Source: a virus
UHGV virus genome: UHGV-1520160
Reading direction: 5' to 3' (one strand)
Length of the DNA: 39,030 nucleotides
Part shown: positions 1,041-31,435 of the stretch, in pieces
Layout of the letters: each line of letters starts with the position of its first letter
Position numbering within the stretch: the stretch's first letter is position 1
Notes under the pieces: generated by a model
Told to the model about the DNA's origin: nothing
What the model saw: the letters and a program-made list of their open reading frames with translations, nothing else
Databases searched by the model: none
Position numbers and translations under genes: made by a program

Positions 1041-2132
1041 TTAGGCCACGTATTCCGGTTTCATATCCGCCAAGGTGATGCTGAACTGATCGTGCAGTTC
1101 GTCGCCCAGATGACGTTTTGCCGTTGCAAGAACTCGCTCAACTTCCCCAAACCGTTCAGCTGCATCCGGATCATCCGGAGACGGCAGGGAGTTTATCGCG
1201 GCTTCAACCTTGTTACGTGAATCAACCAGGTAGTAGCGCTTCACTGCCTTATTCTTCAGCTCGGTGAACAGGGCAGATCCGAGCGTGGCCTTCGCGCTTT
1301 CGATATCAGCACGCAGTGCTTTGGCGCTATCAACATCCTGTGCTGCCTCGATGCGCTCGCGGAAATCATCGGCAAGAGCGTCGATATTTACCGACGATTC
1401 GTGTGCGCTTTGCGTAGTTGTGACGGTGTCACCTGCGATTTCAGCAACGCTCATTCGTTGGGCTGAGCCAGGGTTAATAACTTTTTCTTCTCGTTCTTCG
1501 ACTTCATCGGCACTGTAAACACCAAGAATCACATCAGGGCAGTACAAGCGAGCCCAGCGCTTTACCGCGAGATAAGCGAGCTGCTGACGCGGATCACTTG
1601 CCCATAGTGTCGAATTACGAACCTGAGCCTGAGAAAGCATGAGTACCAGTTCGCGTGGCTCATCCTCGCCTTTCATCGTTGCCCACACACGAATTCCTAC
1701 ACCGGCCTCATCCTTTAAATCCCAACCGGGCGCGATGTACTTATTGCCTTTAGAACTGGTTCTCTCTACAAATCGACCAATGATGTTTTCCCATGGGCCA
1801 AACCAATCGTAATGAAGGCGATCTTTTGTAGGCGACATGTTGGTAACAACCGCATTAACCAGTTGAGCTTCGTAACCCAACACTCCGCTATTACCGACGA
1901 TGTGGGTCTTCTGAGCTACGGCAAAGGGGTCCATACCCCATCGTGCGGCCTGCATGACCACAGCCATGCAGGCATCTGGTTTTCCGCGGAAGTGGTCAGG
2001 TACAAAAGCGCCACTATTTGCCATCACTGTCGACAAGGTGCGTAGGCGGTCGAAAAGTTCCCCATTAGTCAAAATTGAGATGTTATCGATCATTTGCGTC
2101 TTGTTTTCGTTGGTAGTAATTGCAGTAGACAT
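1041..2132 (-). CDS. putative single-strand annealing recombinase (Bet/RecT superfamily), partner of RecE
   Basis: 363 aa ORF immediately downstream of the recE-like gene on the same strand. Segment ACMAVVMQAARWGMDPFAVAQKTHIV...GVLGYEAQLVNAVV resembles the lambda Bet core from memory. Family call is inferred, not searched. Confidence 0.5.
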   Translation of the reverse strand: MSTAITTNENKTQMIDNISILTNGELFDRLRTLSTVMANSGAFVPDHFRGKPDACMAVVMQAARWGMDPFAVAQKTHIVGNSGVLGYEAQLVNAVVTNMSPTKDRLHYDWFGPWENIIGRFVERTSSKGNKYIAPGWDLKDEAGVGIRVWATMKGEDEPRELVLMLSQAQVRNSTLWASDPRQQLAYLAVKRWARLYCPDVILGVYSADEVEEREEKVINPGSAQRMSVAEIAGDTVTTTQSAHESSVNIDALADDFRERIEAAQDVDSAKALRADIESAKATLGSALFTELKNKAVKRYYLVDSRNKVEAAINSLPSPDDPDAAERFGEVERVLATAKRHLGDELHDQFSITLADMKPEYVA

Positions 2133-2144
2133 GTTCTTTTCCCC

Positions 2145-5100
2145 TTATGCCTGAGTACGCAGCGCTTCAAGGCGGCGCAGGTCGAAGTCGTTCAGTTCGT
2201 CGGTGTAATCAGCGGTGATCGGCGCTGGCCATTCGCCAGTGTCAAAGCCGGTAGCGATAGCGCGCATCGCCTTGCGGTACTCGAGCATGCCCAGCTCTAG
2301 CAGTTCAGCGGATGCCTCGATGATGGCGATCCAGTGGTAGTTCTCGTCTTTGTTGACGAAAATCCAGAAGAACTGGTCAAGTGCCGCGGTCTCGCAATAC
2401 ATGGCGGCGCTCAGGTGATAGTCACGGTCGATGATTTCCCGGTGCAGTTTGGCGCGCAGACCTTCCTGCTTAATGTTCCACATGCTGATGGTTTTAAGGT
2501 CGGCACCGATGCGTACCCCGTCCAAGTCGATCTCAAGGTCAGGACGCACGCGGACTTCAAGTCCGGTTTCGTCGTCAAAGCCAAAATAGCTCACCTCAAC
2601 AGCGCGGCTCGGGTGCTGGAGTAGCATCCCGGCGGTTGGGTGCTGGAGCAGGGCTTTCTGAATGGCCAGTGCGGTGCACAGTTGCTGGCGGGTGACCAGA
2701 ACTTTTCCTTGCGGATTCTCACGCCAGGCATCCAGCAATTCGTCGGCGAAGACGGCGTCCGGATTAACAGACTTCACGGCCTGTATCAGGTCTGATTTGG
2801 TACCGGACACTTTCAGCGGTTGCGGCTTCTGCGCTTCCTGGGCCACCAGGTCAGGATTGATGATTGCCAGCTGCTCGAGTAACGCATCACGGCTACCGCT
2901 GGTTTTCACCTGTGCTGGCAGAGTGGCGTTGTATTCCTTGATGCAGGCTTTCATCGCCGCTGCGGTCTGCTTCTGGTCCGCTTCGATACGCTGATACTCT
3001 TCAGGAAGCGACATATAGCTCTGACCAGTTTCCTCGACTGAACCACCCAGCGGCACCTGTGCTGGCAGAGTGGCGTTGTATTCTTCGAGCAAGGCTTTGA
3101 TCTCATCTGCACTCAGCAGCGCTTGCAGACCTGCGTTGTAATCATCGATAAACGCGCGGATCGTTGCCGTCGTGGTGAATGCGCCTTCCGGAATTACCGG
3201 TTCAACGCTGAATTCCTCATCGAGCTGCTCTGGCTGCAACGCCAGTGCATGAACCAGGTTACCCATGTCCAGCACCGGAGAACGCTCTTTGGTGATCGTT
3301 TTGGCAACGTGGCGCGCGTTGAAGTACATCAGGCTAACGCGGGCATCTTTTACCTGCGTGCTGCTGATCCCGTTCGCTGCGTGATAAACCTCGTTCGGCA
3401 GACCTTCATAGCGACCTGGCTCGAAGTAAGCGGGGTAAACAACAGCTGGTTCGTCAGATTGGGCATCTGGCTCGGTTTGTGCCAAAACTGGTTCAGTCTG
3501 GTTTACAGAATCGCTATTTTGGGCGACAGAATCCGTATTCTGGTTTACATCGGCTTGCTGGCTGGTATCTGATTCTTCACCAGTTTCCATACTGCTTTTG
3601 CCTGACTGCACTTCAGTACCAGCCTGTTTTTCATCACTGACAGTTTCTTGAACCTGCACATTGCTGGTGGTCTCCGTAGCCTTTTTCGTGCCATGAGTAG
3701 CTGAGTTCTGCAGCAAAGCCGTAACGTCGAATATTCCGTTGCCGACATTTTTAACCAGTTCTTGTTCGACTTTCTGCGGTTGTGCCGCAGCTTCCTCTGC
3801 GCGGCGGCGTGCTCCTTCTTCACGCACGCGTTGCAGGTTCTCTTCGTGAGTGCAGAAGGATTTGCGCGGAGACTCCTTACTTTCAGGTTGGTGAATTTCC
3901 TGAGTTGCTACTTCAGCTTCATGCAACGGCAATAACTCAACCGCAGAGTTGAATTCAGCAGTCATGGTCTGGTTAACAAATTCCAGGTGAGCGACAGGGG
4001 TTAGATGAATATTTTCCGGCGCGATACGTACCAGGTTAAAAATAGCCGTGCGGTTAACGCCAAGAGCGCCAGGCTGATTGCGCAGAATGCTGCTCCATGA
4101 TTTCCACGGTTCTTCTTTTTTGGTCACGATTTCTTTGGCGCGACGAAGAATGCTGCCTGGGATCTCGAAGTGGTTGAAGTCCATAGGCAGAAGGGCACAG
4201 GCAATCTCTAAATCGAGAGTGTCCAGGGTGTGGTGTGCGTCAGGTCCACGGTCAGTGACGTAACCGCCGTTGGCATTGGTTCCGGAATCAGTACGCTGAA
4301 CACTACTGATGTGATTACCGGCAGCCCATTCACGCGCCAGGATGCCACGGTCAATGTAATCAGTAGCCGCCCACATTCTGGTGAAACGGAGTACCAGCGC
4401 GAGTTCGTGACGCTTGTCCTGGCTGAACACTTTGCGAATGGCATCGGTGTAGCGCCACAGGTCTTTGGTGTCGTAACCCTTCACTTCCGGGCAGTTCTCA
4501 GCAGCTAACAGCAAGTTCTGGACGTAACTGTTATCAGTGTCCATCTCCAGCGCGCCGATAGCTTCGTACTCTTCGCGGGTTACGTGGTGGCGCAGTTCGT
4601 CGGCGGTGAACTGGGAAAGCAGTTGCTTACGAAACGGCATCTGCACTACCGGGTAGAGGGTTGAGTCGTCGTCGTGTTCGTCCAGCGTGATGCCAGCGGT
4701 TTCTGGCAGCGTTGACTCAGTAGTTATGTGACTATCAACGGTCTGAGCCGTTTTCTCGTCAGAGTTTTCAGCTGTGACTTTTGGCAGCCAGGTGCGGTCA
4801 TCGTTCTGCAGTTCGTAGCGTTCGCACCAGGTGTAATCCACTGCGCCTTCTTCCGGCAGGTCGTCATATACCGGGAAATCGGTGCGGATTGGTTTGGCAT
4901 AATCTTTACCGCGGCCAGTTTCTTCAATTCCGGCTTCTTCCAGTGCCACATCGAGTTGGAGATTGGCGCGCGCTACACTTTTCGCAGTGAACCAAATCAC
5001 TGCATCTTTCTTGCCAGACTTCTGACTGGCTTTTATCAGATGGAAAAATTCCATGTGAGATCCTCTTTTTTGAGTGTTAGAATCCCCGGGCCAGAGATAG

Positions 5101-5159
5101 CGCCCATTGGATGTTTTTTGGTTTGGTATAAATTCCGGTGTAACTTTGGTCGGTGGCAC
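2145..5159 (-). CDS. recE: exodeoxyribonuclease VIII (RecE-like)
   Basis: 1004 aa. Recalled E. coli RecE similarity at N-terminus (DAVIWF...DFPVYDDLPEEGAVDYTWCERYELQ...DYIDRGILAREWAAGNHISSVQRTDSGTNANGGYVTDRG) and in the C-terminal nuclease region (YFEPGRYEGLPNEVYHAANGISSTQ...KTISMW). Confidence 0.8.
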   Translation of the reverse strand: MPPTKVTPEFIPNQKTSNGRYLWPGDSNTQKRGSHMEFFHLIKASQKSGKKDAVIWFTAKSVARANLQLDVALEEAGIEETGRGKDYAKPIRTDFPVYDDLPEEGAVDYTWCERYELQNDDRTWLPKVTAENSDEKTAQTVDSHITTESTLPETAGITLDEHDDDSTLYPVVQMPFRKQLLSQFTADELRHHVTREEYEAIGALEMDTDNSYVQNLLLAAENCPEVKGYDTKDLWRYTDAIRKVFSQDKRHELALVLRFTRMWAATDYIDRGILAREWAAGNHISSVQRTDSGTNANGGYVTDRGPDAHHTLDTLDLEIACALLPMDFNHFEIPGSILRRAKEIVTKKEEPWKSWSSILRNQPGALGVNRTAIFNLVRIAPENIHLTPVAHLEFVNQTMTAEFNSAVELLPLHEAEVATQEIHQPESKESPRKSFCTHEENLQRVREEGARRRAEEAAAQPQKVEQELVKNVGNGIFDVTALLQNSATHGTKKATETTSNVQVQETVSDEKQAGTEVQSGKSSMETGEESDTSQQADVNQNTDSVAQNSDSVNQTEPVLAQTEPDAQSDEPAVVYPAYFEPGRYEGLPNEVYHAANGISSTQVKDARVSLMYFNARHVAKTITKERSPVLDMGNLVHALALQPEQLDEEFSVEPVIPEGAFTTTATIRAFIDDYNAGLQALLSADEIKALLEEYNATLPAQVPLGGSVEETGQSYMSLPEEYQRIEADQKQTAAAMKACIKEYNATLPAQVKTSGSRDALLEQLAIINPDLVAQEAQKPQPLKVSGTKSDLIQAVKSVNPDAVFADELLDAWRENPQGKVLVTRQQLCTALAIQKALLQHPTAGMLLQHPSRAVEVSYFGFDDETGLEVRVRPDLEIDLDGVRIGADLKTISMWNIKQEGLRAKLHREIIDRDYHLSAAMYCETAALDQFFWIFVNKDENYHWIAIIEASAELLELGMLEYRKAMRAIATGFDTGEWPAPITADYTDELNDFDLRRLEALRTQA

Positions 5160-5365: not shown

Positions 5366-5572
5366 CTAGTGGCTGAGTCCATGCCCCAGACCGTTCAGAT
5401 AAACTTCAACCAGCAAATCCTTGGTGTAAGTCATTTCTACGCCGCGATGCAGATACAAACGTCCGCGAGCGTTAGCTGATGCCGTCCAGGTTGAGTCTTT
5501 GTGTTTGACGAGCATCCCCGGCTGAACTGCGCCGCGGTTTACTGTCTGTGTACCGTAGTGCTGATGAACCAT
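5366..5572 (-). CDS. hypothetical protein (68 aa), first gene of leftward early operon
   Basis: ORF 5366..5716 trimmed to the ATG at 5572, which has a GGAG Shine-Dalgarno 7 nt upstream. The longer ORF begins with TTG at 5716 and has no SD. Confidence 0.35.
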   Translation of the reverse strand: MVHQHYGTQTVNRGAVQPGMLVKHKDSTWTASANARGRLYLHRGVEMTYTKDLLVEVYLNGLGHGLSH

Positions 5573-5591
5573 GATGTTCTCCAGTTTTTCT

Positions 5592-5676
5592 GAGTGAACT
5601 TCGCTGGTGGTGCCGCGGCGCTGATCTTCACGGTTGAGCGTTTTAACTCTGCAATTCACCACCGCGAAGCTCACTC
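5592..5676 (-). promoter_or_regulatory. long inverted repeat (about 20-bp arms, about 44-nt spacer) in the leader of the leftward early operon
   Basis: Arm 5592..5612 gagtgaacttcgctggtggtg against the reverse complement of 5657..5676 caccaccgcgaagctcactc; one mismatch and one indel. Confidence 0.35.
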
Positions 5677-5927
5677 TGTGCTTTGCCCTTGTCGCCAGGC
5701 TGGCGGAACGTTTCAAACCTACTGCGCGTTAATCTCACCACCTCATTCCGGTCTTCGTATGCCCCGGACGGCTACTTCGTGGGCTCCATGCCTGGGTGGT
5801 TCGTGGTGCGTCTTGGTGAGTTAGATTAAATCACTGGTTTATATATATGTCAACTTAAGGTTGGTGTTAATTGTAAATCTGAGGTTTATGTGGCTGGGTT
5901 TTGTGACACGTCTGCAGAATCGCAGGC

Positions 5928-6027: not shown

Positions 6028-6549
6028 CTAAAAGAAGTGCATAAAAGCTTTGTACAGCCCTGTACCAATGGCGATAATCGCAGGGACACCTAAGAGAATC
6101 GCCAATTTAGCATCAGAGATTTTCTTGTCCACTGTGTCTGATGAGGGCTTTTTGTCTACAGACTCTTTGATACTAGACAGCCTCTCCAAAACTACAGCCA
6201 TATTTTTGTCCAGTGAATTCACTGTCGTATCAACTTTTGAAACTGTGTTTTTTATCTCGGCAACATCTTTCTTGATGTGGGCAACTTCAACCTCAAGAAT
6301 AGCCAATCTCTTTTCCATGTCGTCACCTCCATCTTCAGTTGACGTATGAATGATTTCAGTATCATCCATAGCAACTGATGTGACAATCCGTTTTTGTTTA
6401 TCCGAAGCGGCAAAACTACAAGCACCCATAAGGAAGGTTGCTTGGCTCGAAGCTACTGATGAAAACTCTAAGCCTACTGTAGCTCCGCTATGGTCTGAAT
6501 ATGCAATCAATAACTTCCCTTCACCAAGAGATGATTGAGCCGCATCCAT
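6028..6549 (-). CDS. tail-anchored coiled-coil membrane protein (173 aa); candidate effector of the rex-position cassette
   Basis: ORF track trimmed to the ATG at 6549 (AGGAA about 10 nt upstream). Heptad-like central region (MEKRLAILEVEVAHIKKDVAEIKNTVSKVDTTVNSLDKNMAVVLERLSSIKESV) and one C-terminal hydrophobic helix (LAILLGVPAIIAIGTGLYKAF). Region looks AT-richer than flanks by eye. Confidence 0.5.
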   Translation of the reverse strand: MDAAQSSLGEGKLLIAYSDHSGATVGLEFSSVASSQATFLMGACSFAASDKQKRIVTSVAMDDTEIIHTSTEDGGDDMEKRLAILEVEVAHIKKDVAEIKNTVSKVDTTVNSLDKNMAVVLERLSSIKESVDKKPSSDTVDKKISDAKLAILLGVPAIIAIGTGLYKAFMHFF

Positions 6550-6555
6550 CAATTA

Positions 6556-6837
6556 TTATTCCTCAAACATACTTTTTAAGGATTGATAAAAATCATAAGC
6601 CTTTTGTTTGCTTAAAGTCACAGACACAACTTTGGTTCGCTGCATGCCCTTGACGACTATATCCGCATTATCCGTACCGATGATCGGGCTGCTATTCAGG
6701 AACACAAAATTGTAAACTTCGTAACCGGCATTTTGTGTGCCGATTGTTACGACACCGTCAGCATTGGTCTCGATGAAATTTTTCGCTTCGATTACATCAT
6801 TAAGATGCATAAGTTCGACGGTTGTTTCTTTAGACAC
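6556..6837 (-). CDS. hypothetical soluble protein (93 aa), first gene of the rex-position cassette
   Basis: GTG start at 6837 with a GGAGG Shine-Dalgarno 5 nt upstream; 6-nt gap to the downstream gene; 64-nt AT-rich spacer after the repressor stop. Confidence 0.5.
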   Translation of the reverse strand: MSKETTVELMHLNDVIEAKNFIETNADGVVTIGTQNAGYEVYNFVFLNSSPIIGTDNADIVVKGMQRTKVVSVTLSKQKAYDFYQSLKSMFEE

Positions 6838-6901: not shown

Positions 6902-7291
6902 TTAGGTTTGCTCACCTTGCGATCGAATCCGACCCTTCATGTACTTCTCGTACAGCTCATCTAACTCTTTCAGGCGAAGCGCAAAAATGCGGAGCATGTT
7001 CTGCTGCTCTTCTTCCGGTAACTGGCGGTAGAGCTCGAGCAAACGCTGTTCGTCCGGTTTGAGACCGTCTTTCTCCCCAACGTCTTCACCGAGTAGCCAG
7101 GCGACAGAAATACCAACAGCGTCGGCTATGGCCAGTGCCGATTTCTTACTAATCACGCCTTTTTTGAACCAGCCGTTTACGGCCTGAGGGGTGACTCCAG
7201 CTATTCTTGCCATGTCTGCTTTGGTAACGCCGCGATCAGTGATCTCAGTAAGGCGCTCCACCAGAACGAGGTTGGGTTCTTCTTTTCTCAT
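6902..7291 (-). CDS. prophage repressor, DicA/RacR-type HTH (XRE family), no S24 peptidase domain
   Basis: ORF 6902..7561 trimmed to the ATG at 7291 (MRKEEPNLVLVERLTEITDRGVTKADMARIAGVTPQAVNGWFKKG...). C-terminal LLELYRQLPEEEQ resembles the DicA C-terminal segment from memory. Divergent from a Cro-like gene. Confidence 0.7.
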   Translation of the reverse strand: MRKEEPNLVLVERLTEITDRGVTKADMARIAGVTPQAVNGWFKKGVISKKSALAIADAVGISVAWLLGEDVGEKDGLKPDEQRLLELYRQLPEEEQQNMLRIFALRLKELDELYEKYMKGRIRSQGEQT

Positions 7292-7393
7292 ATGGTCATT
7301 GTAAATATTTGGTTTATGCACGCAATAAATCCAAAGTTTGCATGAAGTATAAATCTGTGGTTTACTTCTGCTATCAATAAGCAGGAGAAGCAC
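7292..7393. promoter_or_regulatory. immunity-region intergenic: divergent promoters with repeated operator-like motif TAAAT-N5-GGTTTA
   Basis: gtaaatatttggtttatg at 7301..7318 and taaatctgtggtttac at 7350..7365; a third copy gtaaatctgaggtttatg at 5873..5890 lies upstream of the leftward operon. Confidence 0.5.
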
Positions 7394-7612
7394 ATGTCCG
7401 CACTCGATAAAGCAATTAAAGCCGCTGGCTCTGCCAGAAAGCTCAGCATCGCGCTTGGTGTGACGAGTATGTCTGTAAGTCATTGGAAGAATCGTGACCA
7501 AGGGATCGTCCCGCCAAGCTATATCTTCCCGATTTTCAAAATGACAGGCGTAACCCCCCACGAGCTGCGCCCTGATCTCTATCCAAATCCCACTGACGGA
7601 TTACCAAAGTAG
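7394..7612 (+). CDS. Cro-like HTH regulator (YdaS-type)
   Basis: 72 aa, HTH segment ARKLSIALGVTSMSVSHWKNR, conserved ELRPDL near the C-terminus; divergent from the repressor; RBS ggagaag upstream. Confidence 0.65.
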   Translation: MSALDKAIKAAGSARKLSIALGVTSMSVSHWKNRDQGIVPPSYIFPIFKMTGVTPHELRPDLYPNPTDGLPK

Positions 7613-7623
7613 GAGCACTGACA

Positions 7624-8181
7624 ATGCAAACACTTTCTTTTCAACAGAATAACAGAGCGCCATCAGAGCACCTGAAATTCCAGTATCAACACAGTGAGGC
7701 TGAAGGCCAGCCGGTCGATCACCGGGCTATCTGTTCTGCCGTCCGCGCCTGGGCGGCGGCAGAGGGCCGCGTGGCGGTCGCTCTGGCGATTAAAGAGGCT
7801 GCCGAACAGGCCGAGCTTGACAGCATTGACATGACCGGCAGCGCCGATGTGTGGAACGTGAAGCTGTTTCGCTGGCTGGACAACCACGAGAAATCACCGG
7901 CCTACCGGGCGAACGTCGAGCAGCTGGCGCCGGTAATAATTTCGGTTCTGCCGCTGGCGTACCGGGATCGCGTGATTAAGCACGACTGCTTTGCGGTTCG
8001 TGTCGCCAGGTCGGTGAAAGAAGACGCTGAGGCGATACAGGCTGTCGTCCTCAAAGCCCCCAGACACGAACGGATGAAGGAAATCAGCGAGAGCATCGTA
8101 GCCAAGCTCTACCTGGACGGACCTGATTCTGTGGCGCCCATTATGGCGATGGTTACAACGATGCTGGGTGGTGCGCTATGA
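7624..8181 (+). CDS. YdaT-like protein at the cII position
   Basis: 185 aa ORF immediately after the Cro-like gene, the same order as racR-ydaS-ydaT in Rac. Family call from gene order and loose recollection. Confidence 0.4.
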   Translation: MQTLSFQQNNRAPSEHLKFQYQHSEAEGQPVDHRAICSAVRAWAAAEGRVAVALAIKEAAEQAELDSIDMTGSADVWNVKLFRWLDNHEKSPAYRANVEQLAPVIISVLPLAYRDRVIKHDCFAVRVARSVKEDAEAIQAVVLKAPRHERMKEISESIVAKLYLDGPDSVAPIMAMVTTMLGGAL

Positions 8182-8265
8182 CGGGCTCAGAAATGGCGAA
8201 AGCCGCGGTGCTCGAACACCAACGGCTTTCAGGTGCAAAAACTGTGCGTAATTGCGGAGAACAGT

Positions 8266-9177
8266 ATGTCAAATACCGCTGAAATATTCAAATTCCCCAC
8301 ACAGCAGGGGAAACAGGAGAGCAGCATGGCTGAACTGGAGAAAGGCTATTTGCGCCTGGCCAACCAGATTCAGGATGCCCTGTGTATCGTCGAACTATCC
8401 GGGCGCGAGTTCCGGGTGCTGAATGCTATCGTTCGTCTGACCTATGGCTGGTCTAAGAGTTCTGACCGCATCGCCAATAGCCTCATTGCAGATAAAACGA
8501 CGCTGAAGGTGAAACACGTCTCTGAAGCCGTGTTGAGCCTTGCCTATCGGAACATCATCATCCTGCGCCGCATTGGGCAAACCAGATACATAGGGATTAA
8601 TACCAGCCTGGATAAATGGGCGTATACCAAGCCAAATTGCATGAAGTGTCCAGCGGTGTTTCCTGCTGCTGAAGTTGTCACATGGGTTATTACCATCCCT
8701 GAATTCAGGGATAGCAATTTTACCCCTTCAATCATCCCTGAAAACGGGGATAACCATCCCCAAAAACAGGGAGAGGTATCCCTGAAAACAGGGAACACCA
8801 AAGACATTCTTCCAAATACAAATATAAATACAGATCTAACCCCCTCTAATCCCCCAAAGGGGAAGGGTAAGTTTGACCCGCTGACGATTCCCGTTCCTGA
8901 GTGGCTTGATTCTGTGTCCTGGAGTGAGTGGGTGGCCTACCGCCAACAGTCTGGCAAAGCCATCAAGACCGAAATGACGGTCACCAAAGCATTCAAGTTG
9001 CTCAAGGCTTGCCTGGACGCTGGGCATGACCCCGTTGATGTGATCAACACCAGTATCGCCAACGGGTACCAGGGACTGTTTAAACCGAAGTTCGCTCTCA
9101 ACGCTCGCAAAACGGGCAGGGATGTGAACCGCATTTCTGAGCCAGACAAAACAATCCCACCCGGATTCAGGGGGTAA
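8266..9177 (+). CDS. replication initiation protein, lambda O-like N-terminal domain
   Basis: ORF trimmed to the ATG at 8266 (GGAGA RBS). N-terminus MSNTAEIFKFP...ELEKGYLRLANQI...SGREFRVLNAIVRLTYGWSK matches recalled lambda O (MTNTAKILNF...DLDDGYARLSNML...RQFKVLLAILRKTYGWNK). Iterons lie inside the gene. Confidence 0.8.
   Translation: MSNTAEIFKFPTQQGKQESSMAELEKGYLRLANQIQDALCIVELSGREFRVLNAIVRLTYGWSKSSDRIANSLIADKTTLKVKHVSEAVLSLAYRNIIILRRIGQTRYIGINTSLDKWAYTKPNCMKCPAVFPAAEVVTWVITIPEFRDSNFTPSIIPENGDNHPQKQGEVSLKTGNTKDILPNTNINTDLTPSNPPKGKGKFDPLTIPVPEWLDSVSWSEWVAYRQQSGKAIKTEMTVTKAFKLLKACLDAGHDPVDVINTSIANGYQGLFKPKFALNARKTGRDVNRISEPDKTIPPGFRG
8695..8795. repeat. replication origin iterons: four copies of palindromic ATCCCT-N4-6-AGGGA, followed by an AT-rich stretch
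   Basis: atccctgaattcagggat 8695..8712; atccctgaaaacggggat 8734..8751; atccccaaaaacagggag 8756..8773; atccctgaaaacagggaa 8778..8795. AT-rich run caaatacaaatataaatacag at about 8813..8833. Same layout as ori-lambda inside O. Confidence 0.65.
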
Positions 9178-10889: not shown

Positions 10890-11357
10890 ATGGATACTAA
10901 GAATGAAGTTGTGCAACATTCATCACCCCAGCAGGCAGTGAGAGTATTTGCCGAGGCCCTTGAACAAGCCGTTAGGGAGAACACTATAGAAGATTCGAAC
11001 TCTCGGTCGCCTGGAAAAACTGTGCTTGATTCAAATTCAGAAATAAAATCTTCAACAATTGTCGGTGCTGGTGGATTGATCGGAACTGCTGGCGTTGCAG
11101 CCACTACAGCTTCGGCCGTTACTGGTGGGTCAGCTGCTACTATAATGTCTGCAACAGCTGGAACAGTTGGAGCCAGTGTTGCATCTTTAGCAGGCGCAGC
11201 AGGAACGGCAGGGGCTGCGTCGATCTCATCCGGAATGGCAGCCGTTGGTTCGGTTGTTGGAGGAGGAATGGCCGCCGGGGCAATAATCACAGCGGTGGCA
11301 CCTGTCGCAGCAGTCGCAAGTGTTGCTTACTTGGCTTTTAAGCTTTTTGAAGATTAA
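10890..11357 (+). CDS. Gly/Ala/Thr/Ser-rich hydrophobic (glycine-zipper-like) membrane protein with about 55-aa polar N-terminal domain
   Basis: 155 aa; C-terminal two-thirds is low-complexity (GAGGLIGTAGVAATTASAVTGGSAATIMSATAGTVGASV...AYLAFKLFED). AT-rich 128-bp upstream spacer; GGAG RBS 9 nt before the ATG. Confidence 0.5.
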   Translation: MDTKNEVVQHSSPQQAVRVFAEALEQAVRENTIEDSNSRSPGKTVLDSNSEIKSSTIVGAGGLIGTAGVAATTASAVTGGSAATIMSATAGTVGASVASLAGAAGTAGAASISSGMAAVGSVVGGGMAAGAIITAVAPVAAVASVAYLAFKLFED

Positions 11358-11561
11358 CTAACCTTTCATAAAGGCTGTTTAAGCAGGCTAATTTTCATAT
11401 CTTAGTAAAGTTTCTGCTGGTTAATAATTAGCAGATACAAAACAGAATCCCGCGATTTCACGGCGGAGCCAGCTATGTTTGCTGAAGCACTGGTGCGTGC
11501 AAATTTGCCAGAGCTTTGTCAGCAGAAACAAATAGCGGCTTAATAAAACATTGCTAATTCA

Positions 11562-11589
11562 ACCCGCTACGGCGGGTTTTCTTTTTTTA
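11562..11589 (+). terminator. rho-independent terminator
   Basis: cccgc-tacg-gcggg hairpin followed by ttttcttttttt. Confidence 0.5.
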
Positions 11590-11650
11590 CTACTGACAGA
11601 AAATTAACAATTTGTGCTCTTAAAACGTTGATCATTTCCGTGCATAGGTA

Positions 11651-11670
11651 TACTGTATAAAAACACAGTA
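11651..11670. promoter_or_regulatory. LexA (SOS) box upstream of the dinI homolog
   Basis: tactgtataaaaacacagta fits the CTGT-N8-ACAG consensus exactly and overlaps a TATAAA -10-like element; a TTGATC -35-like hexamer lies at 11628..11633. Confidence 0.7.
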
Positions 11671-11688
11671 CATGCAATGGAGGCCATT

Positions 11689-11922
11689 ATGAAAGTTGAA
11701 TTAACCATTGATCGCATGAAAGAACTTCCTAAAGGCGCGGTACCAGCACTGGAGAAAGAATTGCTTAAGCGCCTGAATGATCACTATGACAATTGCAGGC
11801 TCACAATCCGCCGTGCCGGGTCCGATGGGTTAAGTGTTTTCGGTGGAGACAAGGACGATAAAAAGAAAATCGAATCCATCCTCCAGGAAACCTGGGAAAG
11901 CGCTGACGACTGGTTTTATTAG
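11689..11922 (+). CDS. dinI: DinI-family DNA damage-inducible protein
   Basis: ORF trimmed to the ATG at 11689 (GGAGG RBS). MKVELTIDRMKELPKGAVPALEKELLKRL...ILQETWESADDWFY matches recalled E. coli DinI (MRIEVTIAK...ISEILQETWESADDWF). Confidence 0.85.
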   Translation: MKVELTIDRMKELPKGAVPALEKELLKRLNDHYDNCRLTIRRAGSDGLSVFGGDKDDKKKIESILQETWESADDWFY

Positions 11923-12039
11923 AATTGCGCTTAAGGCTGGCGCGCATTTATCAGAATACCGCAATTTGCGTAACCCTCTGATGCTGCTGCCGACAATCTT
12001 TAATCGCGTCTGTTAGTCGCTCGAAGGGAGAACATAAAT

Positions 12040-12288
12040 GTGAGTGATTCAGCTTTGCAAACGTCAGATGACAACTGGTATGACATTGTAAGAAGGTCTG
12101 ACGGCTGCGTGGTGTTTAGCTTTCCTTCATCGGGCAGGCATCTAATTTATCGCGTCAATGGCATGGTTTCTATGCGGCCTTTGCTGGATGATGAAGAGGT
12201 CTTTACTCCTAATGGTTTTATGCAGTTTATTCACCGTCTCGGCTACCGGGTAACCCCACCTTCTGATAATATGAAATCAACGGTCTGA
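12040..12288 (+). CDS. hypothetical protein (82 aa)
   Basis: ORF track; GTG start with GGGAG RBS. Confidence 0.35.
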   Translation: MSDSALQTSDDNWYDIVRRSDGCVVFSFPSSGRHLIYRVNGMVSMRPLLDDEEVFTPNGFMQFIHRLGYRVTPPSDNMKSTV

Positions 12289-12322
12289 ACAACCGTAACC
12301 TACTGCGCCACGGAGAGAAACC

Positions 12323-12922
12323 ATGGCGCACGAACTACAACTCATCAAGCAGTCATCAGGAATCCTGATCCCCGCGACGCCGGAGACCAGCGATATTCTG
12401 CAATCAAAAATCAAACTCGGCGCCGTGCTGGTAGCCGAATTTCGCCAGGTGAGGAATCCCGCATTCCATCGCCGTTTTTTTGCGCTCCTGAATCTCGGGT
12501 TTGAATACTGGGAACCTACTGGAGGGGCGATATCCAGCAATGAGCGTAAGCTCGTAAATGGTTATGCTAAATTCCTCGCGGCATTTGGTGGAAACGAAGG
12601 CGCACTGCTGGATGCTGCCGAGCAATATCTGGACCGCATCGCCGATAAGCGCGCCGGTAGCATCAGCATCTGCAAATCCTATGATGCTTATCGCGCCTGG
12701 GTGATCGTCGAGTCTGGTCACTATGACGCTATTCAGCTTCCTGACGGAACACTTCGCAAACATCCCCGCAGTATTGCCTTCGCTAACATGGACGAAACCG
12801 AGTTCCAGCAGCTGTACAAAGCCGCGCTCGATGTTCTGTGGCGATGGATACTCTCCCGATCATTTCGCAGTTGTGAAGAGGCAGAAAACGCCGCCGCCCA
12901 GCTGATGAGCTTTGCGGGGTGA
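12323..12922 (+). CDS. YbcN-like nin-region protein, tentative
   Basis: 199 aa ORF directly upstream of YbcO/RusA/YlcG-like genes, the DLP12 order; the family call rests on gene order. Confidence 0.4.
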   Translation: MAHELQLIKQSSGILIPATPETSDILQSKIKLGAVLVAEFRQVRNPAFHRRFFALLNLGFEYWEPTGGAISSNERKLVNGYAKFLAAFGGNEGALLDAAEQYLDRIADKRAGSISICKSYDAYRAWVIVESGHYDAIQLPDGTLRKHPRSIAFANMDETEFQQLYKAALDVLWRWILSRSFRSCEEAENAAAQLMSFAG

Positions 12923-13128
12923 TGGCGATGAAATTTTCCTGGTTCCACCATCACGAATGCACCACCGAACAGGCCGACGAGCTGGTGGAGAAATACCGGG
13001 CGCGCGGTGTAAAGACAGAGCGCAGCCTGAATCGCGACAACATCACCTGGACCGTCAGCGCGCAATTGCCGGAAGGCGACAACGCGCCTCGCCCGAGCTG
13101 GGTATGGCAAAGCAAGGCGTGGGGGTGA
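12919..13128 (+). CDS. hypothetical small protein (69 aa) in the NinE position
   Basis: ORF track; ATGA overlap with the upstream gene. No similarity to lambda NinE recalled. Confidence 0.35.
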   Translation: MMAMKFSWFHHHECTTEQADELVEKYRARGVKTERSLNRDNITWTVSAQLPEGDNAPRPSWVWQSKAWG

Positions 13129-13130
13129 GC

Positions 13131-13421
13131 ATGGCAAATTTACGCAAAGAGGCTCGTGGTCGTGATTGTCAGGTTCGAATTCCCGGCGTCTGCAACGGTA
13201 ACCCGGAAACGTCTGTACTGGCGCACATTCGCCTGGCCGGGTTATGTGGCACCGGAATCAAACCGCCTGATCTGATTGCCACCATTGCATGCTCTGCCTG
13301 TCACGACGAGATCGACCGCCGTACACATTTTGTCGATGCTGAGTATGCTAAAGAATGCTCGCTGGAAGGTATGGCGAGAACGCAGGTCATCTGGCTTAAA
13401 GAGGGGCTCGTGAAAGCATGA
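13131..13421 (+). CDS. YbcO-like protein (DUF1364-type Cys-rich putative nuclease)
   Basis: ORF 12912..13421 trimmed to the ATG at 13131: [64 protein letters not shown]... closely matches recalled DLP12 YbcO. Confidence 0.7.
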
Positions 13422-13780
13422 ATGAATACCGCATTAGCCTCCCGTGGCCGCCGAGCAACAACCGCTACTACCGGCATAACCGCGGGCGCACGCACATCAG
13501 CACAGAGGGGCAGGCGTACCGCGACAGTGTCGCCAGAATCATCAAAGACTCAATGCTGGATATCGGCCTGGCTACACCCGTGAAAATCCGCATTGAGTGC
13601 CACATGCCGGATCGCCGTCGCCGTGACCTGGATAATCTGCAAAAGGCCGCTTTTGACGCACTCACCAAAGCAGGTTTCTGGCTGGACGATGCTCAGGTCG
13701 TTGATTATCGCGTTGTGAAGATGCCCGTTACCAAAGGTGGAAAGCTGGAACTGACAATCACCGGGCTGGAGGCCGTATGA
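13418..13780 (+). CDS. rusA: Holliday junction resolvase RusA
   Basis: [36 protein letters not shown]...[52 protein letters not shown] is near-identical to recalled E. coli RusA. Confidence 0.9.
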
Positions 13781-13917
13781 CATTTGAATCCTGTTTTTCC
13801 GATCACCTCCGCGTTCGCTGGCAGCGGCTTCGCTTATACCACTTTCCCGGCTCTGTGCTAACGGACTACCGGATACTGAAGAATTACGTGAAAACTTATG
13901 CTGGAGAAGCGCTATGA
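13777..13917 (+). CDS. YlcG-like small protein (46 aa)
   Basis: Manual translation: [46 protein letters not shown]; overlaps the rusA stop and the Q start; conserved core [20 protein letters not shown]. Confidence 0.6.
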
Positions 13918-14729
13918 ACCTTGAAAACACAGTGAAATACCACTTCGCTAAATCCACACTGATTAGCGATTCTCCGCGCGCTACCGTCTCCGATTCACTG
14001 ACCGGTACCGACATAATGGCTGCCATGGGCATGACGCAGGAACGCGCCGCAATGGGTTACAGCGCCTTCCTCGGCAAGATGGGCATAAGCAATAACGACC
14101 GGGATCGGGCGATCGGTCTGCTGGCTGAGTACGCGATGACAAAATGCGACAAGGTTGCCGCACTGCGTAAGCTCGGTGCCGCGGTTAAACCTCAGGTGAT
14201 GCACCAGTTGGCCACCTTCGCTTTTGAGGACTATTCCCGCAGCGCTGCCAGCGTGAAGCAGTGCGATTGTTGTGACGGTCAGGGCTTCATTGAGGCTGAC
14301 GTGTTCACAATGAAATCTCATTATTCAATGAGGATTCCTCAATGGGCGAAAGAGCTTGGTCAGTCACCGAGTGATTTCGAGGTTAAACGACAGGTTCGAG
14401 AGGTGGTTCGAGTGCTGTGCTCGAACTGCAAGGGGAAGAAGGTTGTCAGTTGTGCCTGCAATGATTGCCGGGGACGTGGGAAAGCCGTAGACCAGAAGGA
14501 AACGAAGAAACAGGGGGTGCCGGTTATGACTGACTGCAAGCGCTGCGGCGGGCGTGGATATGAACGCATTCCTTCAACTGAGGCCCACGCAGCTATTTGC
14601 CAGATTACGGATGTAATCAGCCTGGATACGTGGAAGAAGTCCGTTAAACCGTTCTATGATCAGCTGATTACGAAATTCGATATTGAAGAGGCATGGGCAG
14701 AAAACCAACTGAAACAAATAACACGATAA
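13914..14729 (+). CDS. late-gene antitermination protein Q (phage 82 / QuuD-like, Cys-rich zinc-binding)
   Basis: 271 aa; position after rusA/ylcG and before the lysis genes; multiple Cys clusters (CDCCDGQG, CSNCKGKK, CACNDCRGRG, CKRCGGRG). Confidence 0.75.
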   Translation: MNLENTVKYHFAKSTLISDSPRATVSDSLTGTDIMAAMGMTQERAAMGYSAFLGKMGISNNDRDRAIGLLAEYAMTKCDKVAALRKLGAAVKPQVMHQLATFAFEDYSRSAASVKQCDCCDGQGFIEADVFTMKSHYSMRIPQWAKELGQSPSDFEVKRQVREVVRVLCSNCKGKKVVSCACNDCRGRGKAVDQKETKKQGVPVMTDCKRCGGRGYERIPSTEAHAAICQITDVISLDTWKKSVKPFYDQLITKFDIEEAWAENQLKQITR

Positions 14730-14734
14730 CGGCT

Positions 14735-14790
14735 ATGGAAGTTAATTCCAGCTATTTACTTTTCCCGAATCTGTGTTAATTTTATCCCAA
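14735..14790 (+). promoter_or_regulatory. probable late promoter (pR-prime-like) / Q-utilisation region
   Basis: Position immediately after Q; AT-rich with TTACTT and TAATTT hexamers; boundaries approximate. Confidence 0.3.
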
Positions 14791-14813
14791 CGATGGGTTA
14801 ATGCCTTCGTTTC

Positions 14814-14850
14814 AAGCCCCGCGGATAACACCGTGGGGCTTTTGCGTTTC
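14814..14850 (+). terminator. tR-prime-like terminator (hairpin plus T-rich tail) downstream of the late promoter
   Basis: aagccccgcgg-ataaca-ccgtggggctt followed by ttgcgtttc; a second GC hairpin ggcgagg-cgcta-cctcgcc lies at 14861..14880. Confidence 0.45.
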
Positions 14851-28189: not shown

Positions 28190-28941
28190 ATGTTTCTAAA
28201 GAGCGAGCTGCTTGAAAGTAACGGCAGCAGCGTCACATTGTTCCAGCTGTCGGCGCTGCAGCGTATTGAATACCTCGAATACCTGAAACAACTTGAGGCG
28301 GTTGAAGCTGGTGATTTTCAGGCTGCCATTACCCTTACCGTGAAGAGTGGAGCATATCTGGTGGCAATGTCACTCTGGCATGGCCACGCGCTTAAAGGAT
28401 CGCAGGGAGAAAACGCGGCGGCGGAAGTGGAGCAGATTCAGGATGAGGTCATGCAGACATGGCCGACCGAACTTGTTGCCGAAGCCGAATATAAGGTGAA
28501 ACTCCTGTCCGGGATGATTGCGCCGGTCACTGATGACCAGGCTGAGCCCGGTGAAGAACGTAATGAACCCGCTGAACCTGTTACTGCGGAAAAGCCCTCG
28601 CCAGTGAGCTGAAGTTTGCCATGAAACTGGCGCGTGAGTTCGGTCGCCCGGACTGGCGTGCCATGCTTGCTGGCATGTCCTCAACGGAATACGGCGACTG
28701 GAAAATCTTCTACCAGGACAATTACTTTCATGATGCGCAGCTGGACGCACATTTCTCCGGCTTGCTCTACACCATCTCAACCCTGTTTTTTGCCGATCCG
28801 GAGTTAACCCCGGACAGTTTCAGCATTCTTTCCTCTGCACCGGAAGCCATCGACATCGATGATCCGGATGACGATACGCTGATGGCGAAGGCTGCAGGTA
28901 TTTCAGGAGGCGTGCGCTATGGCCCAGACGGCAGTCGGTGA
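28190..28941 (+). CDS. G: tail assembly chaperones G (28190..28612) and GT fusion via programmed -1 frameshift (T segment open from about 28576 to 28941)
   Basis: G: MFLK.E...NG..VTL.ELSALQRIE.L...K; -1 frame continues ...KFAMKLAREFGRPDWRAMLAGMSSTEY.DW matching recalled lambda gpGT. Candidate slip site gcG GAA AAG cc at 28588..28594. Confidence 0.85.
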
Positions 28942-31435
28942 TCTGGTCGTTAACCTTGACGTTAACTCGACAAAATTCAACGAGCAGCTCAGCTACGTCA
29001 AAAAAGAATTAAAACAGACCGGCAATACGGCAAACGATGAAGCGTTACGTATCCAGCAGTCCTTCAGCCGCCAGGAGAACGCCGCGCGTAAGGCCGGTAT
29101 TTCAGTGGGTCAGTATAACGCAGCGATGCGTATGCTCCCGGCGCAGTTTACTGACGTGGCCACGCAGCTGGCGGGTGGGCAGAACCCCTGGCTGATTCTG
29201 CTTCAGCAGGGCGGTCAGGTTAAGGACTCCTTTGGCGGGATCATTCCGACATTCCGGGCGTTGCTGGGGACGATTTCCCCGTTGATGGTCGGCATTGGTG
29301 CATTGTCCGTTGCAACGGGCGCGTTGTTCTATGCCTGGTACCAGGGCTCTTCCACTCTGTCTGATTTCAACAAAACGCTGGTACTGTCGGGGAACACAGC
29401 CGGACTGACAGCTGACCGCATGCTGGCACTGGCGCGGAACGGACAGGCAGCGGGGCTAACGTTCAACCAGACCAGTGAAGCCCTGACCGAGCTTATCAAT
29501 GCAGGTGTGCGTACTGGCTCGCGCTTTGATGAAATGAGCCAGGCGGTGGCGCGGTTTACTGATGCCTCCGGCGTGCCGGTGGAGAAAGTCGCTGCAGCCT
29601 ACGGCAAGCTCGCAACTGACCCGACATCGGGCCTGATCGCGATGGCCCAGCAGTTCCATAACGTTACCGCAGAACAGATTGCCCATGTGGCGCAGCTGCA
29701 GCGTGCCGGTGATGAGGCTGGCGCACTGCAGGCGGCTAACGAGGCGGCTACAGCCGGATTCAACGATCAGACCAAAGCCATCCGCGACAATATGGGGACG
29801 ATAGAGTCTTCAGCGGACTCCCTGAAGCGCGCCTTCAAGTCGATGTGGGATGCAGCCCTCGATATTGGCCGACCTGACACCGCGCAGGAGATGGTGGCAA
29901 AAGCCGAAGCCGCGTTCAAAAAAGCTGATGAAATCTGGAACCTGCGTAAAGGTGACCGATATGTCAATGATGAGGCTCGCGCCCGATTCTGGAATGACCG
30001 CGAAACGGCCAGGCTTGCGCTGGATATGGCGCAGCAGCAGGCGGGAATTGCCAGGGCGAACGAAGAGAATGCATCGCGCGAAGCGGCTGCGGAATCGGAT
30101 CGCCAGAAGTATGCTGCGCAGGCACAGGCAAACTATGCCAAAACGCAGACGGCACTGGAGAAATACACGGCCAGGCAGAGCGAGCTCAACAAGGCGCTGA
30201 AAGAGGGGCGGATCCTCCAGGCTGACTACAACATCAACCTGGCTGCCGCGAAAAAAGAGTACGAAGACACCCTTAAAAAGCCGAAGAAGACCCCGGCAAT
30301 CAGAACCCCCGCAGGTGCCCGTGCCACCGATACGGCCAGTGCCCAGACGCTGGAGCTACAGACACAGCTGCGCACCCTGCAGGAGCATAAGAGCATCAAT
30401 GACACCATCAGCCAGCAGCGTCAGGAGCTGTGGCGTCAGCAGTCCCGCTTTACGGTTCTGGAAGAGGCCGCGAAGACCCGAACGCTTTCTGCTGAGGAAA
30501 AATCCCTGCTGGCCAGTAAAAGTGAGGTGCTTTCCCGTGCGGAGCTGAATGCGAAGCTCGGCGATCAGATAGTGGCGCAGGAGCGGCTTAATCGCCTGCA
30601 GGATACGTCCCAAAAATACGTCACGCAGATCGGCGAGAAAACCCGAGCCCTTGCGGAAAGTGCTGGTATGAGCAGTCGTGCAGCACAACGTCGCAATGAA
30701 GAGGCCCAGCTTCTTCAGGGCTGGAAAAATGGTGGTGGTTCGGAGAACGATGCTGGTTATCAGAATGAGCTGCAGGCGCTGCAGGCGTATTACGCCGAGC
30801 AGGATAAGCTGCGGGACGACTGGCAGTCCGGAGCCAAATCCGCATGGGCAGATTATGTTGATTCTGCTTCAGATGCTTATGGCCAGATAAAGTCGGCTGC
30901 CACCAGTGCGTTTGATGGCATCGGGCAAAATATGGCTGACATGCTGACGCGCGGAAAGGCTGACTGGGCTGACTTCACCCGCTCCACGCTCTCCATGCTG
31001 ACACAGATCCTGCTGAAACAGGCGATGGTAGGCCTGGTGGATTCAGCGACAACCGCGCTGGGATTTGCAGGTGGCGGTTATACCGGTTCAGGCGGGAAAT
31101 ATGAACCTGCAGGTGTCGTTCACCGTGGTGAATTTGTTTTCACCAAAGAGGCTACCAGCCGGATCGGCGTCGGCAATCTTTACCGGATGATGAAAGGGTA
31201 TGCCACGGGTGGGTATGTCGGGGGCGGTGGTACAGGCCCGGCTGCAGCACCTTTCGGTGTCAGTGTATATGCCCCGGTGACGGTCGAGAATGCTTCCGGT
31301 AACGCACAGCAGCAAAACGACGGAGACAGGCTGGGTAAGGCGTATCAGCAGGTGATTAACAAATCTGTCAACGATGGTATCGCCAGGGCAATCCAGCCCG
31401 GTGGGCTTATCTGGAATGCGACCAATCGCAGGTAA
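28919..31435 (+). CDS. H: tail tape measure protein H
   Basis: 838 aa; GISVGQYNAAMRMLPAQFTDVATQLAGGQNPWLILLQQGGQVKDSFGG and C-terminal KYEPAGVVHRGEFVFTKEATSRIGVGNLYRMMKGYATGGYVG match recalled lambda H. Confidence 0.9.
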   Translation: MAQTAVGDLVVNLDVNSTKFNEQLSYVKKELKQTGNTANDEALRIQQSFSRQENAARKAGISVGQYNAAMRMLPAQFTDVATQLAGGQNPWLILLQQGGQVKDSFGGIIPTFRALLGTISPLMVGIGALSVATGALFYAWYQGSSTLSDFNKTLVLSGNTAGLTADRMLALARNGQAAGLTFNQTSEALTELINAGVRTGSRFDEMSQAVARFTDASGVPVEKVAAAYGKLATDPTSGLIAMAQQFHNVTAEQIAHVAQLQRAGDEAGALQAANEAATAGFNDQTKAIRDNMGTIESSADSLKRAFKSMWDAALDIGRPDTAQEMVAKAEAAFKKADEIWNLRKGDRYVNDEARARFWNDRETARLALDMAQQQAGIARANEENASREAAAESDRQKYAAQAQANYAKTQTALEKYTARQSELNKALKEGRILQADYNINLAAAKKEYEDTLKKPKKTPAIRTPAGARATDTASAQTLELQTQLRTLQEHKSINDTISQQRQELWRQQSRFTVLEEAAKTRTLSAEEKSLLASKSEVLSRAELNAKLGDQIVAQERLNRLQDTSQKYVTQIGEKTRALAESAGMSSRAAQRRNEEAQLLQGWKNGGGSENDAGYQNELQALQAYYAEQDKLRDDWQSGAKSAWADYVDSASDAYGQIKSAATSAFDGIGQNMADMLTRGKADWADFTRSTLSMLTQILLKQAMVGLVDSATTALGFAGGGYTGSGGKYEPAGVVHRGEFVFTKEATSRIGVGNLYRMMKGYATGGYVGGGGTGPAAAPFGVSVYAPVTVENASGNAQQQNDGDRLGKAYQQVINKSVNDGIARAIQPGGLIWNATNRR

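Follow-up and report, generated by a model that had tools for sequence, protein, structure and literature searches.

A putatively LexA-controlled dinI-antirepressor operon as the probable SOS induction module of a Gifsy/Rac-like Escherichia coli prophage

How can a prophage respond to DNA damage when its repressor appears to lack the means of cleaving itself, and what does a LexA box placed just ahead of its dinI gene serve? These questions are raised by the UHGV virus genome UHGV-1520160, of which the whole stretch of 39,030 nucleotides was analysed here (hereafter the window). Its gene content (Table 1) marks the window as a Gifsy/Rac-type lambdoid prophage. The ORF map, together with the way in which the related AR_0119 prophage of E. 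coli is annotated, places the lysis, head and tail genes after Q. The operon that begins with dinI lies rightward of the replication genes and is not part of the immunity region.

Table 1. Features of the window that bear on its early regulation and on the dinI operon, in order of position.
Feature	Position	Strand	Basis or remark
RecT	1041-2132	-	
RecE	2145-5159	-	
Kil	5366-5716	-	
GfoR/DicA-type short prophage repressor, 129 aa	6902-7291	-	HTH_3 only; gfoR 3' primer
Cro/YdaS-like regulator, 72 aa, divergent from the repressor	7394-7612	+	PHROG 35, E=4e-21
cII/YdaT-like	7624-8181	+	YdaT Pfam, E=1.5e-17; PHROG 163 'CII-like', E=3e-40
O-like replication gene	8233-9177	+	
Rho-independent terminator-like hairpin AACCCGCTACGGCGGGTT plus T run	11561-11588	+	Terminator prediction
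Putative sigma-70 promoter PdinI-antirepressor	11628-11656	+	Read from the sequence
LexA (SOS) box TACTGTATAAAAACACAGTA	11651-11670	+	Overlaps the -10 candidates and the probable transcription start
Prophage DinI homologue, 77 aa, first operon gene	11689-11922 (ATG to TAG)	+	Pfam, PHROG, PDB
dinI-antirepressor spacer, 117 nt	11923-12039	+	Comparison with Gifsy and SEN34
GfoA-type small antirepressor, 82 aa, GTG start	12040-12288	+	gfoA primers, P0003, PHROG 340
irsA homologue (DUF1367; PHROG label 'NinB/Orf'), third operon gene	12323-12922	+	Pfam, E=3e-92
RusA	13418-13780	+	Domain search
Q antiterminator	13914-14729	+	Domain search

The repressor was called mechanically as an ORF of 219 aa, which we reject because it starts at a spurious upstream GTG: its HTH occupies residues 110-156, and the true ATG at position 7291 gives a protein of 129 aa. 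HTH_3 is its sole Pfam domain, with S24 absent, and a tblastn search of the whole window for S24-like segments with LexA, UmuD and lambda CI (approximate query sequences) returned nothing below E=3. A repressor with an HTH only and no S24 domain is most likely unable to cleave itself. In its size, its N-terminal lambda-CI-like HTH and its lack of an S24/Ala-Gly module it resembles the repressors of the GfoR/GtgR/DicA/RacR type (~130-160 aa). A search of PDB sequences with the repressor gave spurious polyubiquitin matches only.

The core of the LexA box, CTGT-N8-ACAG, is read directly from the sequence at positions 11653-11668. The complete site agrees with the 20-nt enterobacterial LexA consensus TACTGTATATATATACAGTA at 17 of 20 positions, and all three mismatches are confined to the central A/T spacer. 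It has the form of an enterobacterial SOS operator (TACTGT-(AT)4-ACAGTA, with invariant CTG...CAG) and lies over the putative promoter. When up to three mismatches to TACTGTATATATATACAGTA were allowed, this was the sole match in the window, and none of 100 shuffles contained one. The loose 16-nt motif CTGT-N8-ACAG is found twice in the window against 0.48 expected, and at least two copies were reached in 8 of 100 shuffles; by itself this shorter motif is weak evidence. Its second copy (29384-29399) is located inside a large tail gene and has a GC-rich spacer.

The candidate promoter is composed of a -35 hexamer TTGATC (11628-11633) and a -10 hexamer whose only plausible reading is either TATACT (11649-11654; 15-nt spacer) or TACTGT (11651-11656; 17-nt spacer). 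A consensus promoter scanner did not call it, the spacer being 15 nt for the best -10 and the -10 being weak at 17 nt; its placement is therefore inferred from the conserved geometry of related loci and from the literature. A TTGA-type hexamer stands at an equal distance from the LexA box in seven of eight related loci. The terminator-like hairpin that precedes the promoter is also found upstream of the LexA box in mEp237, Gifsy-1, SEN34, Chris1 and SPN3UB, and may insulate the SOS operon from early-right transcription arriving from upstream.

The ATG of the first gene lies 18 nt from the last base of the box and is preceded at 5 nt by the Shine-Dalgarno sequence GGAGG. Its product matches the Pfam family DinI (PF06183) over the entire profile (1-63 of 63; E=1.7e-26, 92.7 bits with a cutoff of 24.2), PHROG 189 'RecA filament binding protein DinI' (E=4.9e-27) and, end to end, the E. 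coli DinI protein of PDB 1GHH (1-76 against 1-78; E=1.1e-17). The acidic C-terminal helix ILQETWESADDWF, which is the RecA-binding, DNA-mimic region of E. coli DinI, is identical to that in 1GHH, and the prophage protein presumably binds RecA filaments as host DinI does. A preliminary description of this locus had recognised the DinI homologue with its E. coli-like C-terminus, the fit of the box to the LexA consensus, the position of the box over the -10 region of the dinI promoter and the lack of an S24 autocleavage domain in the repressor. All of these are in agreement with our results, the overlap applying to the putative -10 hexamers TATACT/TACTGT on which the scanner is silent.

The answer to the first question seems to lie in the gene that follows. 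An ORF on the same strand begins 117 nt downstream of dinI, with the Shine-Dalgarno sequence AAGGGAG (12024-12030) 9 nt before its GTG. Primers carrying the gene ends were taken from Table S1 of PMC3121763 and aligned to the window: the gfoA 5' primer matches at 18 of 19 nt (12043-12061) and the gfoA 3' primer at 33 of 34 nt (12235-12268). In a large database, the Salmonella protein closest to the ORF product is P0003 (82 aa; 270 member sequences), with an identity of 89%, and the N-terminus of P0003, MSNSALQK, is the same as that encoded by the gfoA primer. On the basis of the primer-encoded termini and of the N-terminus shared by P0003, we regard the ORF as orthologous to the gene of the Gifsy-1 antirepressor GfoA. 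The window protein reads PPSDNMKSTV at the point where the primer-encoded GfoA ends in ...PPSDI, and thus has a C-terminal tail 5 aa longer than that of GfoA. Small size (~75-85 aa) and a non-canonical start characterise the GfoA/GfhA family, and both are found here, the homologues starting with GTG, TTG or ATG. Seventeen columns are invariant among 20 sequences of the antirepressor family.

The relationship to GftA, the other antirepressor type, appears to be distant. The ORF product belongs to PHROG 340 ('unknown function'; E=4e-20), and GftA of LT2 belongs to PHROG 4847 with a weak match to PHROG 340 (E=0.23). A close relationship between the 82-aa protein and GftA was rejected, as BLASTP gave no alignment to LT2 GftA and only the comparison of profiles shows distant homology (hhalign of the ORF family profile with GftA: E=5e-5, 67% probability, 66 columns). 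This picture fits PMC3121763, where GfoA is described as no more than a distant relative of GftA. No match to the antirepressor was found in Pfam or among PDB sequences. Its AlphaFold model, composed of four strands and one helix, is of modest confidence (pLDDT 67, pTM 0.37), and Foldseek of this model against the PDB gave no match below E=1.

The preliminary description had reasoned that, with such a repressor, induction would presumably proceed through an antirepressor or another route, and the combination of an HTH-only repressor with a GfoA-type gene indicates that this was right. It had also stated that the induction factor was not evident in the window, which was mistaken, because the gfoA primers and P0003 identify it as the very next gene after dinI. 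The gene is labelled 'hypothetical protein' in the RefSeq E. coli genomes and phage records examined, those of mEp237 and SEN34 giving no other annotation, and this label explains why a reading of the sequence alone saw a non-cleavable repressor without its inducer.

The arrangement is shared by a broader set of phages. We compared eight loci, namely the window, coliphage mEp237, Gifsy-1 (LT2), SEN34 and SPN3UB of Salmonella, ST974-OXA48phi18.2 of Klebsiella, PHB10 of E. coli and Chris1 of Citrobacter. A TACTGT-N8-ACAGT box occupies the same position in all eight, 18 nt from the dinI ATG in seven and 19 nt in PHB10; since identity of the flanking DNA drops to 50-60%, the box seems to be conserved selectively. 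In every locus, the gene directly after dinI encodes either GftA or a homologue of the 82-aa protein. The full order of terminator, box, dinI, small ORF and irsA is also seen in Gifsy-1, mEp237, SEN34, SPN3UB, PHB10 and the Klebsiella phage phi18.2, and Chris1 retains dinI and the small ORF with no full-length irsA gene annotated. Over positions 11511-12400, nucleotide identity to the window is 97.5% for mEp237 (gp48-gp50; NC_019704) and 85% for Salmonella phage SEN34 (genes 54-56), and both phages keep the gene content and gene order. Between the repressors of mEp237 and the window the identity is 73%, and mEp237 is hence probably heteroimmune. Among 5,426 complete E. coli genomes, the segment is at least 95% identical in 51 (~1%), any match being found in 52, and it is always chromosomal and single-copy in the genomes carrying it.

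The function of this arrangement has been worked out in Salmonella. Lemire, Figueroa-Bossi and Bossi (2011) found that the LexA box is preceded by a terminator-like palindrome in all Gifsy prophages, and that it is followed by dinI, a small antirepressor gene with a non-canonical start (gfoA, gfhA or gftA) and irsA (PMC3121763). The non-cleavable lexA3 allele abolishes Gifsy induction, exchange of the box region for PBAD renders induction arabinose-dependent, the antirepressor is sufficient on its own, and a complex of antirepressor and repressor is formed (PMC3121763). Moreover, a single SNP in the -10 of PdinI-gfoA makes Gifsy-1 non-inducible in the ST313 strain D23580 and abolishes production of Gifsy-1 phage (Owen 2017; PMC5322425). 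The three Gifsy dinI homologues are upregulated 23-, 14- and 4.6-fold with nalidixic acid, and their boxes, described as '19 bp from the ATG', have heterology indices of 3.9-5.3 (PMC8072944); the box in the window has the same geometry.

The closest known counterparts are PdinI-gfoA of Gifsy-1 and gfhA of Gifsy-3 in S. Typhimurium ATCC14028, which agree with the window in gene order, in the distance from box to ATG and in the non-ATG start of the antirepressor. The 5' primer of the 14028 Gifsy-1 irsA gene matches the window at 38 of 40 nt (12317-12355). Gifsy-1 and the window also have in common a short HTH-only repressor with a similar 3' end and a recE/recT early-left arm. They differ in their host, which for the window element, known here from sequence, is E. 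coli and not Salmonella, and in the N-terminal DNA-recognition part of the repressor, which is unlike that of GfoR and therefore points to a different immunity.

Other systems are less similar. Tum of coliphage 186 (split tum in PSP3 and Fels-2) and AntC of N15 are also LexA-controlled antirepressors, and a DinI-like half of Tum links the antirepressor and DinI functions by fusion (PMC3121763). However, these belong to other phage families (P2-like and N15), and their order is either reversed relative to the window, with the antirepressor ahead of DinI, or replaced by fusion. Rem of Qin is described as a GfoA-related antirepressor of the DicA repressor (PMC10448788). The chromosomal dinI of E. 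coli (1GHH) and the Klebsiella dinI-DinR locus likewise have a LexA box just upstream of a DinI of ~80 aa, but chromosomal dinI is a monocistronic unit closed by a terminator, whereas dinI in the window is followed by a conserved, terminator-free spacer and then by further genes.

Taken together, the segment from 11561 to 12922 is very probably the SOS-sensing induction module of a Gifsy/Rac-like lambdoid E. coli prophage, with the antirepressor acting on the 129-aa repressor. The sequence features, homology, synteny and co-occurrence come from the window and the relatives analysed here, and LexA dependence, co-transcription, sufficiency of the antirepressor and the complex with the repressor were established by others for homologues; the transfer to this E. 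coli element and the repressor surface that is contacted are what we infer. In an undamaged lysogen, host LexA on its box would block the overlapped promoter, and the hairpin (11561-11578) would halt read-through from upstream. Upon DNA damage, RecA filaments would bring about the self-cleavage of LexA and the promoter would fire, giving a single transcript of dinI, the antirepressor gene and the irsA homologue. The antirepressor would then bind the 129-aa repressor, probably via its conserved C-terminal half, and remove it from its operators. This titration would open the divergent early promoters, leftward towards kil, recE and recT, and rightward towards the cro-like, cII-like and replication genes. 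By analogy with Gifsy, the LexA box would mainly gate the antirepressor as the functionally decisive product.

An alternative closer to the emphasis of the preliminary description is that the box mainly serves an SOS-inducible extra DinI, which feeds back on RecA in the lysogen and so affects LexA/UmuD cleavage, mutagenesis and induction kinetics, the induction factor being encoded elsewhere. In its favour, dinI comes first among the genes behind the box and is the best conserved of them, it precedes the antirepressor in all eight loci, and the helix by which its product would contact RecA is identical to that of E. coli; Lemire et al. (2011) also took the conservation of dinI to argue for some regulatory role (PMC3121763). 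However, the antirepressor gene comes next after dinI in the same predicted transcription unit, non-polar deletions of dinI in Gifsy-1 and Gifsy-3 caused no significant change in the level or rate of induction, and the antirepressor alone expressed from PBAD suffices (PMC3121763). Non-polar deletions of irsA in Gifsy likewise had no significant effect on induction (PMC3121763). With the dinI deletions neutral and the antirepressor decisive in Gifsy (PMC3121763, PMC5322425), the weight previously placed on DinI as the point of the box is not supported, and we consider this alternative improbable. As in Gifsy, DinI would rather be a co-transcribed passenger that is dispensable for induction.

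The assumption that the antirepressor acts on the resident repressor also has to be weighed. The gfoR 3' primer, which covers the repressor C-terminus, matches at 30 of 33 nt (6951-6919, minus strand), and the gfoR 5' primer and the gfhR 3' primer have no match in the window. As the repressor N-terminus is unlike that of GfoR, the cognate pairing is deduced from C-terminal similarity and from co-occurrence. Homologues of the antirepressor were found in 12 distinct phages, 10 of which also possess a homologue of the 129-aa repressor. When four such repressors were aligned, the HTH half was variable and the C-terminal half almost invariant (GLKPDEQRLLELYRQLPEEEQQNM.RIF.LRLKELDELY.KYM). This suggests that the conserved half may be a docking or dimerisation surface, and it fits the finding that GfoA inactivates heteroimmune repressors (PMC3121763).

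It could still be argued that the module is an orphan, that is, a cassette brought in by recombination whose 82-aa protein acts in trans on other prophages or on nothing. Flanked by conserved DNA on both sides, the antirepressor gene has clearly been swapped as a cassette, the repressor N-terminus differs from that of GfoR, and the antirepressor of mEp237 is 96% identical to that of the window in spite of the lower identity of the two repressors; in addition, antirepressors of Gifsy and Fels-1 are known to act in trans on non-cognate repressors (PMC3121763). Nevertheless, it is precisely the GfoR-like C-terminal half of the repressor that is conserved, an antirepressor of this type is accompanied by a repressor of the type found here in the great majority of the phages, and the heteroimmune repressors that GfoA inactivates are of the same architecture (PMC3121763). 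The early region offered no other candidate route of induction, such as an S24 domain or a large Ant/KilAC gene, and we find an orphan module very unlikely. That the palindrome matches CTGT-N8-ACAG by chance or is a relic, with the dinI promoter constitutive or under the phage repressor, is scarcely credible: the recurrence of the loose motif in the window and in shuffles and the silence of the promoter scanner would allow it, but the 20-nt match is unique, its position is kept in eight loci with diverged flanks, and LexA dependence of the homologous boxes has been shown experimentally (PMC3121763, PMC8072944).

Within the probable induction module, the antirepressor gene stands out as the exchanged part. 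It is only 38% identical to Gifsy-1 (LT2) at the nucleotide level and lies between conserved flanks, the last 46 nt of dinI with 100 nt of spacer being 89-91% identical and the first 200 nt of irsA 90%. The dinI-gftA-irsA operon of Gifsy-2 and LT2 Gifsy-1 (repressor GtgR/GftR) has the same architecture, LexA control and a GTG start of the antirepressor as the window, and differs in that its antirepressor cassette is of another, distantly related type. Such a pattern of mosaic junctions would allow the determinant of antirepressor specificity to be exchanged.

Neither a terminator nor a promoter is predicted in the 117 nt between dinI and the antirepressor gene, which is consistent with their co-transcription. 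The first 100 nt of this spacer (11923-12022) are 88-89% identical to Gifsy-1/-2 and SEN34. A coding role of the alternative-frame ORF at 11834-12016 was rejected, because four synonymous and four non-synonymous differences from Gifsy-1 were counted by eye and because more distant spacers contain indels whose lengths are not divisible by three. The spacer is kept at ~89% between E. coli and Salmonella prophages even though the 5' part of dinI is at 61% and the antirepressor cassette at 38%; 11923-12022 might form a functional RNA element of the SOS transcript and be more than a recombination linker. We regard this as doubtful. At gathering thresholds, Rfam has no family in the window, the spacer included; from six spacers, RNAalifold predicted a weak consensus structure (-10.6 kcal/mol) backed by essentially no covariation, and further spacer variants in phages and E. 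coli genomes were of the same lineage only. If there is such an element, it could be an RNase E processing site or a stable dinI 3' fragment, analogous to Klebsiella, where the 3' end of dinI is processed into the sRNA DinR (PMC10907235). It could also be a translational throttle which, together with the GTG start, sets the threshold of LexA cleavage at which enough antirepressor is made.

The transcript may run further than irsA. No intrinsic terminator is predicted on the plus strand from 11579 to 14814, and the LexA-controlled transcript may therefore read into the Q gene. Such read-through from PdinI into the antiterminator gene is conceivable, and if true it would provide a repressor-independent SOS input into late gene expression.

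The system itself is already known, and the locus is another copy of the Gifsy-type antirepressor route, which Lemire et al. predicted to be widespread in E. coli (PMC3121763). Its residual value lies in the transfer of annotation: PHROG 340 and proteins like WP_071524885 should be labelled as GfoA-type antirepressors. Lysogens of this element are predicted to be SOS-inducible in a lexA-dependent and reversible manner, and may also bring about cross-induction of further resident prophages whose repressors are of the GfoR type. The element is thus relevant to the release of phages triggered by antibiotics in the ~1% of E. coli genomes harbouring it.

The GfoA-type antirepressors form a characterised family that is under-labelled in databases, an annotation gap. 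In the prophage of E. coli AR_0119 (L008) the gene occupies 6500-6748 (WP_071524885.1), and its product is listed as 'hypothetical protein' in RefSeq E. coli as well as in all phage records examined (L001 and L003-L007), while the corresponding family, PHROG 340, is labelled 'unknown function'. A start-stop ATG-TGA (aATGTGAgt) was also seen to overlap the GTG start of the antirepressor gene. It is common to the window and mEp237 and is not found in SEN34 or Gifsy; the overlap is probably incidental.

The repressor begins at the ATG at 7291 and comprises 129 aa. The 219-aa ORF listed mechanically for this locus (6902-7561, minus strand) was rejected, being too long for the repressor and placing the HTH at residues 110-156. 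When the repressor was aligned with those of L009, L010 and L011, its C-terminal half was nearly invariant among these heteroimmune phages and the HTH half variable, which makes the former a candidate surface for antirepressor docking or dimerisation.

No intrinsic terminator was predicted on the plus strand from 11579 up to a hairpin that looks like tR' (see the table below). As the dinI promoter has no predicted terminator ahead of it until this hairpin, the LexA-controlled transcript might extend through irsA, ybcO, rusA and ylcG into Q. A second CTGT-N8-ACAG motif, CTGTCGGGGAACACAG, lies within an 838-aa ORF (28919-31435) and is most likely a chance match, since its spacer is GC-rich and it lacks promoter context.

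Features of the window discussed here, with coordinates
Feature	Position	Strand	Remark
Repressor	6902-7291	-	
155-aa ORF	10890-11357	+	C-terminal half Gly/Ala-rich
Probable methyltransferase remnant	~11375-11544		just 5' of terminator
Spacer	11923-12022		100 nt, non-coding, 3' of dinI
ATG-TGA	12038-12043		
Hairpin	14814-14841	+	shortly after Q; tR'-like
Second CTGT-N8-ACAG motif	29384-29399		

Upstream of the operon, the C-terminal half of the 155-aa ORF is probably membrane-associated; the ORF has no family in Pfam or PHROG and is not present at the corresponding position in mEp237 or E. coli AR_0119. The DNA that follows is probably what is left of the 3' end of a DNA cytosine methyltransferase gene, a call based on how PGAP annotates the equivalent stretch in E. 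coli AR_0119.

Prophages of E. coli and Salmonella share the spacer at ~89% conservation. It gave no Rfam match and no predicted terminator, and its consensus fold is weak and without covariation. The spacer might serve as a linker for recombination or act as an RNA element, for which Klebsiella DinR offers a comparison case (PMC10907235).

When 11877-12522 is compared with Gifsy-1 of LT2 (L002), both flanks of the antirepressor gene prove to be conserved with Gifsy-1/-2: on one side the 3' end of dinI together with the spacer (89-91% identity), on the other the initial 200 nt of irsA (90%). Between these flanks the antirepressor gene itself is 38% identical to its Gifsy-1 counterpart, and by these identities it is a swapped cassette. 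Such a mosaic junction around the gene would allow the specificity determinant to be exchanged.
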